Shown here piece after piece: positions 2,893 through 59,292 of a DNA stretch of 64,000 bases. Position 1 is the stretch's first letter. Each line of letters opens with the position of its first letter. The stretch is from the sequence record OP870144.1; one strand, 5' to 3'. This DNA comes from Escherichia phage vB_Eco_F25. The translations under genes and the position numbers were made by a program. Below the pieces are notes generated by a model. It saw nothing but the letters and a program-made list of their open reading frames with translations, made no database searches and was not told the origin of the DNA.

Positions 2893-3486
2893 TTATTTCA
2901 GAGAATTAATGTATTCCTGAACATCGGCAGAAGTGGTTTCAACCCCAGAAATATTACCGTTAAAGGTTTCAACTCGAGCAAGAGTATCTTCAATATCAAC
3001 CTTAGTTAGCGCTGCGATTTCAACTACATCATCGGCAGTACTAATTCCAAGGGCATTTGCCGCACGAGTTTCACGGATATATTCCAATTTAACTGCAAGT
3101 TCTTGGCGAGCATCATCTAACTCAACTACTTTCTTGGCGATTTCAATTCGCATTTCAGCATAACCATCAGCCTTAGTAGTCAACTGTTCAGCTGTTCGAC
3201 GATATAGCAAACCGAGTTTAGCATGCATTGTTACATCTTGACCCTCGGAAAGAAGCTTGCGAATTTCACGCTCTTTTGATTCGGCTTGTCGATTCTTTTC
3301 GATAACAAGTTCACGAATACGTTTTTCTTCATTAATAGATTTAACAGAAGCAGTTTTTAGATCTTTAATTTTATCAAGCAGTTTTGCTGCTGCAGCAGTA
3401 TACTGTTCTTCAACAGATAGATTTTTAGCCATAGCAGAACCAAGTTTAGTGCGAATAAACTCAACAATTTTCTTCAGTGTGTTCAT
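2893..3486 (-). CDS. Alpha-helical coiled-coil protein (possibly PspA/IM30-like)
   Basis: 197 aa, AAGGAA SD; heptad-rich, charged, low-complexity helical composition; PspA resemblance is weak and by eye only. Confidence 0.55.
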
Positions 3487-3587
3487 AGTATTTCCTTAGG
3501 TTAATTGAGATTTAAAATCCGTAGGAGTATAATACTCTATCGTCAAATTATAGGCTCATAATATCTCAATCATGAGCCCGTGTAAAC

Positions 3588-3851
3588 TTATTTCATATTA
3601 TTGAAATATTCTTCTGCGATTTCATCGTTATCATGGTAAACTTTAGAAGACAGTTTAACATAACCTTCAGCAGTGAACATATTAATCACAACTTTTACAG
3701 TATACCACTGACCGTCTTCATTACCCATTACTGCGTAAGTTTCAAACATCGGATGGTCAGGACCGATGACTTTAATATCATTCACTGTACGACCGAAATC
3801 TTCTGAAACGCATTTCATAAAGAAGTTGAACAGTTCGCCGTAATTATCCAT
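3588..3851 (-). CDS. Hypothetical protein
   Basis: Track ORF begins at TTG; ATG (MDNYGELF...) 12 nt downstream with GGAG SD; early promoter upstream. Confidence 0.6.
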   Translation of the reverse strand: MDNYGELFNFFMKCVSEDFGRTVNDIKVIGPDHPMFETYAVMGNEDGQWYTVKVVINMFTAEGYVKLSSKVYHDNDEIAEEYFNNMK

Positions 3852-3894
3852 TTCATTCTCCAAGTTATTTTCTGTATCAGTAGTTGATAGTTGT

Positions 3895-3924
3895 ATAGTA
3901 CCATGGAAGAACGGGGATGTAAAC
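3895..3924 (-). promoter_or_regulatory. T4-type early promoter (GTTTAC-N17-GTACTAT)
   Basis: Minus-strand reading GTTTAC + 17 nt + GTACTAT with A/T-rich upstream region, about 45 nt before the ATG. Confidence 0.4.
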
Positions 3925-4057
3925 AGTTTTGTGAAAAAATTTTTTAAAAAGTTTTAGGGAATTCTAGGGAAGGGAGGGGCAATTAAAGGATAGGATAATA
4001 TATTATAAAGGGTAGAAACTAAATGATGCCTAGAGAGGTCCAGAAAGGCCTAGATAC

Positions 4058-4083
4058 CAAAAAGCCCTATCATTTAGATAGGG
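4058..4083 (-). terminator. Rho-independent terminator
   Basis: Minus-strand hairpin CCCTATC-UAAAU-GATAGGG followed by U5, just after the stop of 4092..4655. Confidence 0.55.
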
Positions 4084-4091
4084 ATTTAAAA

Positions 4092-4655
4092 TTATTTATC
4101 TAGTTTAGTTATTATAGCTTCTGCGGCAGCTTTTAGCTTAGATGCGGTGTTAATACGATTTTTAATTTCAGTATACGCATCGCCAAGAACATCAAGGCTA
4201 TCAGAATAAACGCTTACACTATTGCGTTCGCTATTTGAAATAGAACCTTTAGTTTTACGATCAAAATCGATGTACACGTCTTGAAGATCACGGGCTGCCT
4301 TCTTTGCATCATCCAATGCATCAAGAGCTTTATTCAAAGCATTAACGTATTTTTTAGTGTCGAACATATTCTTAGAAATTTTAACAGGCGCACGTTCAGG
4401 AGTAGCTAAGGCAGATTTAGGAACCTGAGCGCCAGATGCCAGTTTCTTAGAAATTTTGAAAAATGCTTTATTGAATTTATTTTCTTGACTCATCGTAAAA
4501 GAACTATTATCAATGTTATACATTTCAATAGCTTTAGCTTTCCACTTAAGAAAATCGCCACGGTCTTTTGGGTCCAATTGGAAGAATACTTTAGTAAGTT
4601 CTGCTTCAGATGGTAATTTTGCTGCTTCGGTTAAAAATTCGGCATAGGTTTTCAT
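4092..4655 (-). CDS. Internal (head-packaged) protein with capsid-targeting sequence
   Basis: 187 aa; N-terminus MKTYAEFLTE|AAK matches T4 IP CTS with gp21 (L/I)xE cleavage motif; AAGGA SD. Confidence 0.7.
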   Translation of the reverse strand: MKTYAEFLTEAAKLPSEAELTKVFFQLDPKDRGDFLKWKAKAIEMYNIDNSSFTMSQENKFNKAFFKISKKLASGAQVPKSALATPERAPVKISKNMFDTKKYVNALNKALDALDDAKKAARDLQDVYIDFDRKTKGSISNSERNSVSVYSDSLDVLGDAYTEIKNRINTASKLKAAAEAIITKLDK

Positions 4656-4744
4656 TTAAAATCCTTGAAATAATTTATCGGTCAGTTATTAATTATTTAT
4701 TACTTTGTTATTATCCGTAACAGCATTCTCTATGCGATTCAAAC

Positions 4745-4773
4745 TAAAAAGCCCCAACCTTTCGGTCGAGGCT
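4745..4773 (-). terminator. Rho-independent terminator
   Basis: 10-bp GC-rich stem with GAAA loop then U5 on minus strand; near-identical copy at 5300..5328. Confidence 0.55.
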
Positions 4774-4780
4774 AAGAATG

Positions 4781-5254
4781 TTATTTGATTTGTTTAGCAG
4801 ACCAAATGCGGTCTTTGATGATTTTTTGGAGATCTTCAACATACTCTAGGTCATGAGCATGTGGATTATCTTTGAAACTATAGGCACGGGCTAATTTTTG
4901 GCCTTCGGTTTTAATTACTAAAAGCTCTTTAAGGATAGCTTCATATTTAGCGATAATTCCTTTAACAATATTTTTTTCTTGTGCAGCTTTAGGATCTGCT
5001 TTAGGAGCAGGTTTACCGGAAGGTTTTTCGAAAGCCGCACCAGTAGCAACCAGACTTTTCCAGGCGGTGGTAACATAGTTACCCACAAAGCCTTCAGCTC
5101 TCATATCGTCGTAGAACTTGTACCGGGATTCGTCAGAAGCATCTTTATAAGAATATTTACCAGATTTAATAGCAGCAGTTGCTACAGCGCGAACATCTGA
5201 AGCGGATGCTTCATTTAACACCGCTTCATTTAAAAATTGAGCATATGATTTCAT
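4781..5254 (-). CDS. Internal (head-packaged) protein with capsid-targeting sequence
   Basis: 157 aa; N-terminus MKSYAQFLNE|AVL; AGGAAA SD; late promoter immediately upstream. Confidence 0.7.
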   Translation of the reverse strand: MKSYAQFLNEAVLNEASASDVRAVATAAIKSGKYSYKDASDESRYKFYDDMRAEGFVGNYVTTAWKSLVATGAAFEKPSGKPAPKADPKAAQEKNIVKGIIAKYEAILKELLVIKTEGQKLARAYSFKDNPHAHDLEYVEDLQKIIKDRIWSAKQIK

Positions 5255-5290
5255 CTTATTTCCTGTTTTAATTCGTGGTTTTAATATACT

Positions 5291-5298
5291 TATTTATA
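5291..5298 (-). promoter_or_regulatory. Late promoter TATAAATA
   Basis: Reverse complement reads TATAAATA about 35 nt upstream of the internal-protein gene start. Confidence 0.5.
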
Positions 5299-5299
5299 C

Positions 5300-5328
5300 T
5301 AAAAAGCCCCAACCTTTCGGTCGGGGCT
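5300..5328 (-). terminator. Rho-independent terminator after the tRNA/small-RNA cluster
   Basis: Minus-strand hairpin AGCCCCGACC-GAAA-GGUUGGGGCU followed by U5. Confidence 0.55.
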
Positions 5329-5379
5329 AAGCCTTGCGGCAACCTTGTCGGGGTTCCACCTGCTAAGGCAAGTGTTTGT

Positions 5380-55259: not shown

Positions 55260-56224
55260 TGTATTCTTTAGAGGAATTTAATAATCAAGCAATAAACGCA
55301 GATTTCCAACGTAATAATATGTTTAGCTGCGTTTTTGCAACAACTCCATCAACTAAAAGCTCTTCGTTGATAAGTTCAATTAGCAACTTTTCTTATAATA
55401 ACTTGGGCCTAAATTCAAATTGGTTAGGATTAACTCAAGGTGATATTAATCAGGGAATTACCACGCTAATTACAGCTGGCACACAAAAACTAATAAGAAA
55501 ATCAGGAGTCAGTAAATATCTTATTGGTGCCATGAGTCAACGTACTGTCCAGAGTTTATTAGGCTCATTTACAGTTGGTACATATTTAATTGACTTCTTT
55601 AACATGGCATATAACTCATCTGGATTGATGATATACTCTGTAAAAATGCCAGAGAATAGATTATCCTATGAAACTGACTGGAACTATAATTCTCCTAATA
55701 TTCGTATAACTGGGAGAGAATTAGACCCTTTGGTTATTTCATTTAGAATGGATTCAGAAGCTTGTAACTATCGTGCAATGCAAGACTGGGTTAACTCCGT
55801 TCAAGACCCAGTAACTGGATTACGTGCTTTGCCACAAGATGTCGAGGCAGATATTCAGGTTAATCTTCATTCTCGTAATGGATTGCCTCATACTGCGGTG
55901 ATGTTCACCGGATGCATTCCAATATCAGTGAGCGCTCCTGAGTTATCATATGATGGAGATAACCAAATAACTACATTTGATGTTACTTTTGCGTATAGAG
56001 TGATGCAGGCTGGAGCAGTTGATAGACAAGCTGCGCTTGAATGGCTTGAATCTGCTACTATAAATGGTATTCAAAGCGTTCTCGGAAATAGTGGAGGTGT
56101 TACTGGACTATCTAATTCGCTTTCACGACTCAGTAGATTAGGTGGAACTGCAGGAAGCATTTCAAACATTAATACTATGACAGGAATTGTCAATTCGCAA
56201 AGTAAAATATTAGGAGCAATATAA
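55259..56224 (+). CDS. 54: Baseplate-tail tube initiator gp54
   Basis: 321 aa, T4 gp54 length and order. Confidence 0.9.
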   Translation: MYSLEEFNNQAINADFQRNNMFSCVFATTPSTKSSSLISSISNFSYNNLGLNSNWLGLTQGDINQGITTLITAGTQKLIRKSGVSKYLIGAMSQRTVQSLLGSFTVGTYLIDFFNMAYNSSGLMIYSVKMPENRLSYETDWNYNSPNIRITGRELDPLVISFRMDSEACNYRAMQDWVNSVQDPVTGLRALPQDVEADIQVNLHSRNGLPHTAVMFTGCIPISVSAPELSYDGDNQITTFDVTFAYRVMQAGAVDRQAALEWLESATINGIQSVLGNSGGVTGLSNSLSRLSRLGGTAGSISNINTMTGIVNSQSKILGAI

Positions 56225-56228
56225 CAAT

Positions 56229-56258
56229 GGGGACCGAAAGGTCCCCATATTTTTATTT
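56229..56258 (+). terminator. Terminator after gene 54
   Basis: Hairpin GGGGACC-GAAA-GGTCCCC followed by ATATTTTTATTT. Confidence 0.55.
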
Positions 56259-56543
56259 ACGGAATGAAATGAAAGCAGCAACTGAAGCAACTAAACTGTC
56301 TTCAATATAAACTTCAATTTTTACCGGAGCTTCTGACTCAAATTTACCTGTTACTACACCCTGAAAAATACTTTCAGTCTGTTCTGGCTTTGAAAAATTT
56401 TCAGAAGGAAAAATTCCAAATTTTTTATCTGTTCCGAAAATTTTGATAAATTCATCATAAACTGCTTCATTAAAAGCGTTATCAGCAGGAATAACGCCTT
56501 CAACTACAAGTTCTTGACCTAAAAAGCGTAAAGAAGATTTCAT
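56253..56543 (-). CDS. Hypothetical protein (alt-downstream)
   Basis: 96-aa ORF, last gene of the minus-strand alt transcription unit. Confidence 0.55.
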   Translation of the reverse strand: MKSSLRFLGQELVVEGVIPADNAFNEAVYDEFIKIFGTDKKFGIFPSENFSKPEQTESIFQGVVTGKFESEAPVKIEVYIEDSLVASVAAFISFRK

Positions 56544-56553
56544 TTTGTGTTCC

Positions 56554-56960
56554 TCATGTTATGTTAGTAAGACTACTATAACACAACACGAGGGACTTGT
56601 AAACTACATTTTGAACTTTTAGTACGCGTAATAGGCATGCGTCGATTTTATACTGTTTCATTGTTTGAAGAGCAGTATCAAAAACAGCATTAATGACACC
56701 AATTGGATTTCCACCCAAGTTTTTAAGCTTAACTAATGATAGTTTCTCATTAACACCTATCATTACGATATGCATCATTTTGTCGCCTGGTTTAACGTTT
56801 TATCTGTATCACCGCCAGAGGTGTATGTACAAAATCTAAATCCAGGAAGCACGCTTTCTTCGCCGGCTTGAATAGCAAAAATTTGTGGTATTTTATGCTT
56901 AGGATTTAAGTTAACAACCGGCGCCGAAGCGCCGTCAAATAATTCTGTAATAAGTTCCAT
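56554..56960 (-). pseudogene. Frameshifted partial duplicate of the alt N-terminal region (two small ORFs)
   Basis: ORF 56775..56960 and ORF 56554..56778 each align by eye to the Alt N-terminal region (about residues 1-60 and 64-120) but in different frames; SD precedes first ATG. Confidence 0.55.
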
Positions 56961-56963
56961 GAT

Positions 56964-59054
56964 TTATCCTTGAACGAACTTGTAAGGCATGTTTGCAATA
57001 TCTATGCAAGACGCAATAATTCCAAGAGATGATTCTACTTTCTGTTTAACATTTGATGAAACAAATGATGCAAAGTCAACTCTATCTTCTATATCACCTG
57101 TCATTGTAACCAATTCACCAGTTTCCATTAAATGGTCTCCGTCATAGATTACCGATTCGGTGAGTTCTTCTGTGGTCATAACTTCAGCTTGAATGAGTTT
57201 TGTATTATTAGATGTTGTTCCGTCATTATTAGAAGCATCAGTTATTTTATTAACTTTGACCATCAATCCGCGCGGTAGAATAACTTCAGCTTCTGTTGCT
57301 ATTCCGAGACTTCCTGGATATACAACATTAACTTTATGAGCTCCATCAATTGCCCATCCTATTTGAACTTTAACGTATTCAGGATTTTCTTTATACGCTC
57401 TTATTTCGCTTGGATTAATAGTTATTCCTTCTTCATTTTTATCAACTGTCAATTCATTACGAGCTTCTGGTTCTAAAAGACCAATACCAGCATGTGTAAT
57501 TCCAAAACGTCCAAAAATGATAGGAGTTAAAGAAGTAGATACAAAATTTCTGAAATAGAACACTTTATTTTTAACTAGTGCTTCGTATATAGGAGCAGTC
57601 ATGCTTTGAGCACGATAAACTGTAATGCCTTCTGGTATACGGTCACCATTTTCAAAAGCTGAATCTAAGTTATTTATAGCAGATTCAATTTCTTTTTCAC
57701 TCATTACATCATATCGTTCTGGATTGTAACGACCCAAAAGAAGATTATTGATGTCAGTATATCCTGAACCACAATACTCTCTAATGCCGCGCTTTTGTGA
57801 TGGAGTATATTTAGAACCATCACGGGCAATAGTAATATCAATCATTGGACCTGCACCAATTCCAGAAAAACTGTAAATCATTCGTTTGAGGAATTTAGTT
57901 TTTGCTGCGTTCCAGGAATTTTTAGTTATTTCTTCCCAGACTTCATCTGGTTGTCCTTTACGATTTTTATTATGATTAGCAAGCCATTTATCTTTATAAT
58001 CTTCAAAGAATTGATTTACAGCTGCTGCGTATTTCTCTAAACATTTTATTGAAGTAGTTGGTTCATTTTTAATTGCATTAAAAATTACTTCTTTAATTTT
58101 TTCTGAAACTTCATTAACCTCACTTTTTGAAAAGAATTTATAGTCATAGTGAAGTTCATCTGCGGTTCCTTCGGCAATAATTTTTGCTGCCTTAGTTTTA
58201 GAAGCTAATGAATTAATTCCAAGCTTCATTTCTTCTGCTTCGGGAATTAAAGGAGCTGTAGCAGGTTTATTGAAATTAGCTGCGGTAGATTCATATTTCT
58301 GGAATAATTCGCTTTCAAATCTAGAAGATTCTAATGACTGACTTTGCGCAATTGCTCTACGGGAAATTTTAACTTTAACGATTACAGCTTGGTCAGAACG
58401 TTTATCATTTTCTTGTGCAATAGATGCTGCAATTGCCTCATTTTTAGTTACTTGGGCTCCAGTATCTTTATTGATATAAACATCACCGACTTTTGATTCA
58501 ACTTTAGTAAAGAGCTCGGTACTAATTTCCGGAACTCCTGGAATGTCTTCTAGTGATACATTTTTGCGATGTATAAGAATATATGCGTACTTTTTATCAT
58601 AATCCCAGAGTTCCTTAAGAAGGACGTATCTACCACCTGAACGACTACGGATAAGTCTATCAGCAATAACTTGAATTTGTCGAGCTTGGCCAGCAGTTTT
58701 AGACTTAAGAATACGAAGCATACAAGCATCAATTTTATATTGACGCATTGTTTGCATTGCAACAGTAAAAACTGAATTGATATAATTAATTGGGCTTGGA
58801 CCAAGACCTTTTAATTTAGCAATTGAACCTTTAGCAGTTAATGTAAAAGGAACAATATGCATCATTTTATCGCCCATCTTTAAATCGCGATTAGTATCAC
58901 CTCCAGATGTATAGGTACATAAACGAAAGCCTGGTTGTTCAATTGCATCATCAACATGAACTGAAAAAATTTGTGGTATTTTCTTCTTTGGATTTAAGTT
59001 TGTAATCGGAAGAGTAGTATCTTCGTCAAATAATTCTGTAATGAGTTCCATCAT
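56964..59054 (-). CDS. alt: Alt ADP-ribosyltransferase (head-packaged)
   Basis: 696-aa ORF (T4 Alt about 682); late promoter and GAGAGGA SD upstream; position between gene 54 and gene 30. Confidence 0.85.
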   Translation of the reverse strand: MMELITELFDEDTTLPITNLNPKKKIPQIFSVHVDDAIEQPGFRLCTYTSGGDTNRDLKMGDKMMHIVPFTLTAKGSIAKLKGLGPSPINYINSVFTVAMQTMRQYKIDACMLRILKSKTAGQARQIQVIADRLIRSRSGGRYVLLKELWDYDKKYAYILIHRKNVSLEDIPGVPEISTELFTKVESKVGDVYINKDTGAQVTKNEAIAASIAQENDKRSDQAVIVKVKISRRAIAQSQSLESSRFESELFQKYESTAANFNKPATAPLIPEAEEMKLGINSLASKTKAAKIIAEGTADELHYDYKFFSKSEVNEVSEKIKEVIFNAIKNEPTTSIKCLEKYAAAVNQFFEDYKDKWLANHNKNRKGQPDEVWEEITKNSWNAAKTKFLKRMIYSFSGIGAGPMIDITIARDGSKYTPSQKRGIREYCGSGYTDINNLLLGRYNPERYDVMSEKEIESAINNLDSAFENGDRIPEGITVYRAQSMTAPIYEALVKNKVFYFRNFVSTSLTPIIFGRFGITHAGIGLLEPEARNELTVDKNEEGITINPSEIRAYKENPEYVKVQIGWAIDGAHKVNVVYPGSLGIATEAEVILPRGLMVKVNKITDASNNDGTTSNNTKLIQAEVMTTEELTESVIYDGDHLMETGELVTMTGDIEDRVDFASFVSSNVKQKVESSLGIIASCIDIANMPYKFVQG

Positions 59055-59074: not shown

Positions 59075-59082
59075 TATTTATA
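59075..59082 (-). promoter_or_regulatory. Late promoter TATAAATA for alt
   Basis: Reverse complement reads TATAAATA about 25 nt upstream of the alt ATG. Confidence 0.5.
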
Positions 59083-59087
59083 AAATT

Positions 59088-59105
59088 AAAGGCCCGAAGG
59101 CCTTT
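59088..59105 (-). terminator. Hairpin/terminator between the gene 30 unit and alt
   Basis: AAAGGCC-CGAA-GGCCTTT hairpin followed by U-containing tract on minus strand. Confidence 0.4.
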
Positions 59106-59292
59106 AGTAATCTAGTGGTAAGAGAGTACGATATATTTCAAACTTTGGTCCTTTTTCATAGGCATCAAATGTTTCTGTAAATTTATTATAAGCGTATGCA
59201 TCTACAAATTCGAGAATGACTTGTGATACAGAAGTAGAAACATCTCCACCTTCTTTTTGAGCAATGACAATTGTTTCTAAGTAAGCTTTCAT
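59104..59292 (-). CDS. Hypothetical small protein
   Basis: 62-aa ORF; ATG overlaps the gene 30 stop (ATGA). Confidence 0.55.
   Translation of the reverse strand: MKAYLETIVIAQKEGGDVSTSVSQVILEFVDAYAYNKFTETFDAYEKGPKFEIYRTLLPLDY

Follow-up and report, generated by a model that had tools for sequence, protein, structure and literature searches.

The region between alt and alt.-3 of Escherichia phage vB_Eco_F25 is almost certainly a pseudogene, the relic of a second alt-like ADP-ribosyltransferase gene. It lies in a Tequatrovirus (T4-like) segment of 64,000 nucleotides, hereafter the window (the whole stretch of sequence record OP870144.1 that was analyzed), with genes 29, 48 and 54 in plus-strand orientation. 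It occupies positions 56554-56960 of the minus strand, which is exactly the interval from the start codon of one small reading frame (ORF1) to the stop codon of another (ORF2). Several features, when considered together, mark a pseudogene: an intact ortholog in close relatives; disabling lesions in the form of a deletion, frameshifts and a nonsense codon; and relaxed constraint, the last as seen in a small, recombining sample. A preliminary description of this DNA had offered a decaying tandem duplicate of alt or, alternatively, a small N-terminal fragment of Alt that could still be made and packaged. The former is borne out by the intact ortholog in T2, RB32, RB18 and other phages, together with the disabling lesions found here.

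Table 1. Features of the alt to alt.-3 locus (window coordinates).
Feature	Position	Strand	Description
Late-promoter motif TATAAATA	59075..59082	-	T4 type, 5' of alt, directly past the alt.1 terminator (59106..59087)
alt	56964..59054	-	Full-length packaged ADP-ribosyltransferase; ORF of 696 aa from the first ATG
Shine-Dalgarno AAGGA for ORF1	56967..56971	-	6 nt before the ATG, within the last two sense codons of alt
ORF1	56775..56960	-	Equivalent of T4 alt.-1; 61 aa
First frameshift site, A4 run	56798..56801	-	From alignments; tblastn frame switch at 56799
ORF2	56554..56778	-	Equivalent of T4 alt.-2; 74 aa
Deletion junction, single direct-repeat copy CTAAAAGT	56615..56622	-	blastn against RB32 and T2
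T4-early-type promoter for alt.-3, (G)TTTACA-17-TGTTATAGT	56575..56603	-	Promoter scan, 10/12 matches plus extended -10
alt.-3	56253..56543	-	96 aa, DUF5498 (PF17602, E=1.4e-64); intact, unrelated to alt
Bidirectional intrinsic terminator	56227..56248		Between alt.-3 and gene 54; ends leftward transcripts crossing the remnant

The neighboring alt gene encodes a complete enzyme, with PF03496 at residues 379-628 (Pfam, E=1.8e-37) and a match to phrog_802 (E=8e-274). It is the long, T2/RB32-like form of Alt (~696 aa, as against 682 aa in T4). Its reading frame opens with two adjacent ATG codons at 59048-59054 (MMELITE...), of which the second, at 59051 and giving MELITE..., is the probable true start, since T4 Alt is annotated from MELITE. 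In vB_EcoM_G2540-3, the closest relative of the window, alt (locus L003, 3266-5372) is annotated as two CDS, 3266-3592 and 3642-5372; unlike in that annotation, the alt of the window is one intact ORF. The ATG of ORF1 comes only 3 nt past the alt TAA, and its Shine-Dalgarno sequence, earlier described as lying 4 nt past the alt stop, is actually situated ahead of that stop, inside the alt coding sequence. An identical Shine-Dalgarno sequence precedes the 685-aa ORF of the second alt copy in RB32, and that of ORF1, judging from the sequence, was inherited from the intact second gene.

Both ORFs resemble the N-terminus of Alt. BLASTP against the adjacent 696-aa protein gave 58% identity for ORF1 (E=3e-23) and 61% for ORF2 (E=7e-21). 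When Alt was compared by tblastn with positions 56200-56963, its residues 1-63 aligned at 56963..56778 in frame -1 and its residues 57-117 at 56799..56617 in frame -3; the two collinear HSPs jointly reached E 1.3e-36, with no Alt match in this interval past 56617. From these E values the similarity is real and far beyond chance. Hence, the reading of the ORFs as consecutive stretches of the Alt N-terminus, for which this tblastn comparison had been proposed as the check, holds good, as does their subsequent divergence from Alt, which starts at the deletion junction. Compared as nucleotides, the remnant and the 5' end of alt share ~71% identity. Among the PHROGs, ORF1 matches phrog_23015 (E=4e-45) and ORF2 phrog_15247 (E=6.5e-39), and the profile of the Alt family, phrog_802, is matched as well, over positions 2-61 by ORF1 and 64-118 by ORF2; homology to the Alt N-terminus is thus seen by both BLASTP and this profile. 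Neither ORF matches any Pfam family, PF03496, the ADP-ribosyltransferase catalytic domain, included.

The conserved N-terminal 237 residues likewise correspond to no Pfam family. We observed, however, that a precomputed table lists PF26846.1 for a remnant-derived 92-aa protein (P0001) of Salmonella phage SG1, whereas our local Pfam copy gives no match for either that protein or the Alt N-terminus; a newer Pfam family covering the Alt N-terminal region may therefore exist. Among solved structures nothing resembles this region, and only the catalytic domain of Alt resembles the binary-toxin ADP-ribosyltransferases. The reconstructed N-terminus, used as a query for protein homologs, returned 3 short matches only.

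The parent of the remnant can be recognized in the intact second alt gene, of 2,058 nt and 685 aa, which most Tequatrovirus records hold between alt and alt.-3. We found it at this position in RB32, T2, JoYop, RB18, pSs-1, ESh16 and two IMG/VR contigs (IMG/VR scan, 5 loci only), under annotations that vary between 'alt.-2', 'alt.-1' and 'Alt-like RNA polymerase ADP-ribosyltransferase'. A tblastn search with the joined ORFs placed 414 records in the 90-95% identity band, and in nearly all of those sampled residues 1-115 are unbroken under an Alt-like ADP-ribosyltransferase feature. The product of this gene carries PF03496 at residues 416-620 (Pfam) and is ~42% identical to Alt overall, its first ~240 residues being far better conserved. 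The remnant aligns by blastn with nt 1-345 of the second copy at 95.6% identity over 385 nt, including 40 nt of upstream flank, and it also matches, at 97%, the last 17 nt of that gene and the DNA downstream. Given this value, as against the ~71% shared with alt, the remnant descends from the second paralog and not from a recent copy of alt. The earlier notion of a duplicate of the alt 5' region is therefore right in that alt was duplicated, but not in that the copy comprised the 5' part only: the remnant is what is left of a complete and anciently diverged 685-aa paralog.

The intact copies of T2, RB32, RB18 and other phages are 92-93% identical to the window at the amino-acid level over residues 1-115, and they share with it the same Shine-Dalgarno sequence and start, the same 3' end and the same downstream promoter. 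They differ in being 685 aa long with PF03496, whereas the window retains 17% of the gene, in two frames. As a separate observation, the second copy of UTI-E4 (locus L025, 2301-4359) is otherwise full-length yet 1 nt longer (2,119 nt between its start and alt.-3), and its annotation divides it into two overlapping CDS; the extra nucleotide reflects either a frameshift of independent origin or faulty sequencing.

Comparison with the parent gene allows the lesions to be placed precisely. When aligned with RB32, the minus strand of 56200-57000 falls into two blocks that meet at a 9-bp direct repeat, CTAAAAAGT, which the intact gene has at nt 340 and again at nt 2039, with both breakpoints falling within it. 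Missing are one copy of the repeat and the 1,690 bp that separated it from the other, a total loss of 1,699 bp from the second alt gene. The loss spans residues 116-680 of the parent and takes with it the entire ADP-ribosyltransferase domain, so that codons 1-115 and the terminal 17 nt remain. Such a footprint is typical of deletion between short direct repeats, an event common in the T4 rII literature, and we infer that it arose by replication slippage or microhomology recombination.

The second lesion is the loss of 1 nt from an A5 run (AAT AAA AAC GTT; AATAAAAACG), which has become A4 (GATAAAACG) in the window. All nine sampled intact copies have A5 at this site, as do the relatives with the deletion alone. 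Due to this loss ORF1 is out of the ancestral frame after codon 53: its codons 1-53 (56802-56960) keep that frame, and its final 8 codons (TLNQATK and the stop) do not. The ancestral frame is continued by codons 1-54 of ORF2 (56617-56778), the start of which overlaps the ORF1 stop (ATGA), the TGA of ORF1 overlapping the ATG ATG of ORF2. A frame change at this boundary between the ORFs, at AAAATGATG, is ruled out by the RB32 alignment, which places the true site 8 codons before the ORF1 stop. Thus, the split between the ORFs noted at the outset is genuine, though its position had been set slightly off.

Beyond the junction, ORF2 continues for 20 codons through the former 3' end of the gene and intergenic DNA, read out of frame. 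This tail contains the early promoter of alt.-3, just 5' of that gene, as well as its ribosome-binding site; the promoter is ancestral intergenic DNA lying outside the alt duplicate. At the junction itself, T4 and the other 17 remnant sequences examined have CTAAAAAGT, with an A5 run where the window alone has lost one further A (A4, 56617-56620). As a consequence, ORF2 is extended from the 67 aa of T4 to 74 aa with a different tail. Among 50,697 records, none matches the A4 junction of the window exactly over its full length, the best full-length match being 97.9%. The missing A reflects either a mutation private to this phage or a sequencing error in the homopolymer, the latter being conceivable but on the whole rather unlikely.

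A survey of relatives reveals these lesions as stages of a wider decay. With a query spanning the junction, 90 of the 483 matching records were found to carry the deletion, and 18 remnant and 9 intact loci were checked by sequence. The deletion junction is identical in 18/18 of the remnants. At one extreme, N2, AV121 and FL23 (verified by sequence) and SYGD1 and FL44 (by tblastn) show no further lesion and retain a continuous ORF of 128 aa; this truncated form has the same junction as the window without the frameshift or a nonsense codon, and it is an earlier stage of the same decay series. The A-run frameshift was found in 12/15 sampled remnants and is absent (A5) in SG1, fPS-2, fPS-90, N2, AV121 and FL23. 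A third kind of damage converts Glu6 to a stop (GAA to TAA) in 7/15 of the first sampled remnants; its exact version occurs in 43 records, and all seven of those checked by sequence hold the remnant. HY03 (locus L014) has a further independent lesion, a 7-nt tandem duplication (AGAAACT) inside its ORF2 equivalent that breaks the frame; the ORF2 frame stays open in 17/18 of the remnant sequences examined.

This distribution bears on whether the lesions might be artefacts of sequencing or assembly, with a continuous gene broken only by homopolymer errors. Although both 1-nt indels do fall in A-runs, and the A4 junction of the window is found in no other record, the frameshift and the 1.7-kb deletion recur in dozens of genomes that were sequenced independently, among them several T4 records obtained by different technologies, and the catalytic domain would be missing even without the indels. 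Since its main features are shared by so many independent genomes, we consider such an explanation to have next to no probability; only the junction indel specific to the window is plausibly an error.

The same survey argues against programmed recoding, in which -1 ribosomal frameshifting, or else slippage during transcription, would fuse ORF1 and ORF2 at the A-run into one Alt N-terminal protein of ~130 aa. The frame change does lie within a homopolymer run, and ORF2, which overlaps ORF1 at ATGA, is shifted by -1 from it; however, the site reads GAT AAA ACG, which is not an X XXY YYZ heptamer of the kind expected for programmed frameshifting, and it is not conserved, the relatives having either A5 without a shift or an upstream stop that would abolish recoding. 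Efficient slippage by the polymerase would call for a run longer than A4. A search for known RNA elements in 56100-57200 gave none, the only hit being a sub-threshold chance match to IRES_APC (21 bits against a 50-bit cut-off). Recoding is accordingly exceedingly improbable.

The pattern of substitution points to relaxed constraint, as expected of a relic. Over the first 115 codons, variants private to the remnants comprise 9 nonsynonymous changes, the nonsense codon counted among them, and 2 synonymous ones, as against 1 nonsynonymous and 19 synonymous private to the intact copies (p = 2.5e-5, Fisher's exact test), in a comparison of few, related and non-independent sequences with clear recombination between lineages. 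From these ratios, the N-terminus of the intact gene appears to be under strong purifying selection and the remnant not. This disfavors the alternative that ORF1, or the 128-aa form, is a functional small protein: a late, N-terminal-only Alt-like peptide directed to the prohead core and cleaved by gp21 after MELITE, which might, for example, modulate the packaging of Alt. Such a role would build on the behavior of gpAlt itself, a prohead-core protein from which gp21 cleaves off a small N-terminal peptide (PMC9958956), and on the unbroken 128-aa ORF in five records. The Shine-Dalgarno sequence, the ATG and the MELITE N-terminus of ORF1 are also all intact. Nevertheless, apart from the excess of nonsynonymous changes, the codon-6 stop, the frameshift that cuts the conserved N-terminal region in two and the C-terminal tails, which vary among phages as a result of the indels, all speak against it, and we regard a function of this kind as very unlikely.

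As regards transcription, there is no terminator between alt and the bidirectional terminator past alt.-3, which is annotated likewise in G2540-3, fPS-2 and SP1; hence, from the sequence and the RNA data for T4, the remnant would be transcribed together with alt. A late transcript from the TATAAATA promoter of alt is likely to run through it. This octamer occurs 23 times in the whole window against 9.8 expected from shuffles, and its plus-strand copies lie mostly in the region of late structural genes. The alt.-3 gene of T4 is expressed early, as RNA and as protein, and the RNAs of alt.-1 and alt.-2 are classed as middle, like that of alt. The early-type promoter before alt.-3, with its GTTTAC -35 element identical to the T4 early consensus (PMC1524935), fits the early expression of alt.-3 in T4, the C-terminal extensions of which let T4 escape the CmdTAC defense system (PMC11618068).

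As regards translation, the intact start, Shine-Dalgarno sequence and MELITE N-terminus make it likely, on the basis of sequence, that ORF1 is translated to some extent in the phage of the window; examples of its tryptic peptides are IPQIFAIQAGEESVLPGFR and FCTYTSGGDTDK. In the time-course infection proteome of T4 (PMC9697503), Alt.-3 is abundant from 1 min and Alt is abundant and rises late, and in Table S3 of that study the Alt.-1 group has an LFQ of 0 in 24/24 samples and there is no Alt.-2 protein group. That a MaxQuant group for Alt.-1 exists at all implies at least a trace peptide identification, which can be counted in favor of a functional peptide and against a mere relic. Other points likewise sit less easily with a relic, namely the preserved initiation signals and N-terminus of ORF1, the ORF2 frame that is still open in nearly all remnants and the persistence of the remnant in ~90 sequenced genomes without further deletion. 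We also considered a narrower version of the functional reading, in which, in phages that keep Glu6, ORF1 as a short late peptide enters the prohead core or competes with Alt for packaging sites, tuning the dose of injected Alt; this we deem very unlikely. The proposal that an N-terminal-only fragment is still made and packaged is disfavored by the codon-6 stops, the nonsynonymous excess and the T4 infection proteome, although it retains a slight probability for ORF1 of the phage of the window, with its intact start.

Taking the locus as a pseudogene relic, we reconstruct its history as follows. The ancestor had alt and the 685-aa second copy as tandem paralogs, followed by alt.-3. In a lineage that includes T4 and the phage of the window, 1,699 bp were deleted between the CTAAAAAGT repeats, as seen from the alignment, presumably by recombination or slippage; this yielded the 128-aa ORF that survives unbroken in a few phages. 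Later damage took different paths: the 1-nt loss from the A5 run created the alt.-1/alt.-2 split, as in the window; elsewhere, Glu6 was changed to a stop in other lineages and 7 nt were duplicated in HY03; and one more A at the junction was lost in the window alone. The tail of ORF2 is nothing other than the early promoter and leader of alt.-3 in an arbitrary frame, and a short-lived ORF1 peptide may be started from the inherited ribosome-binding site. We see no indication of either peptide being selected for or accumulating, and the catalytic domain is wholly gone.

The locus illustrates how tandem paralogs may be lost in T4-like phages: T4 and the phage of the window exemplify a microhomology deletion with indels and nonsense mutations arising afterward. 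An alternative route is homologous fusion to a chimera. This is exemplified by ECML-134, where a single chimeric alt gene (locus L008, 3501-5561), intact at 686 aa and with no remnant, represents another reduction of the tandem pair: up to residue ~158 its product agrees fully with Alt and from there on with the second copy at ~99% identity, and it evidently stems from homologous recombination of the tandem paralogs within the conserved DYDKKYAYI region. In terms of annotation, the correct label for both ORFs is that of one pseudogene, not of hypothetical proteins or of an 'ADP-ribosyltransferase', as used in several GenBank records. An ADP-ribosyltransferase still encoded by most close relatives of T4 is thereby missing from T4 itself, a point of relevance when this phage serves as the model for Alt biology. 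Beyond correct annotation, the significance of what is an ordinary decaying pseudogene is small.

Finally, the comparison with T4 and the RB phages, which had been suggested from the outset, shows that the pair in the window is a known entity. The 901 bases around the feature are 98-99% identical in ~90 phage genomes, T4 included, and besides the intact second copy in RB32 and RB18 the comparison identifies the two ORFs as T4 alt.-1 and alt.-2 (UniProt P39495 and P39494), with 98.4% identity to the window over the 901 nt. The T4 pair likewise lies on the leftward strand between alt and alt.-3 and has the same deletion junction, the same A-run frameshift and the same 61-aa ORF1. It differs in its alt.-2 of 67 aa, as against the 74-aa ORF2 of the window with its different 20-aa tail, in the length of the neighboring alt noted above and in a few substitutions, such as N53D. 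Codon 17 of alt.-1 reads ACA (Thr) in the reference T4 record (AF158101), whereas T4T and all the other sequences have AAC (Asn); this 2-nt difference has the look of a long-standing sequencing discrepancy. The relic has already been described by the T4 annotators: a note in the reference T4 record states that alt.-1 and alt.-2 seemingly duplicate the first part of alt with a stop codon introduced, whereas the GenBank note for T4T takes them together as a deletion plus a further frameshift in the second alt copy. They were also counted among the paralogous duplications of alt by Nolan in 2006 (PMC1524935). The same survey reported RB49ORF183c and 44RRORF188c as paralogous partial alt duplicates adjoining alt; these belong to phages of different genera, and their origin may be independent of that of the relic in T4 and the window.
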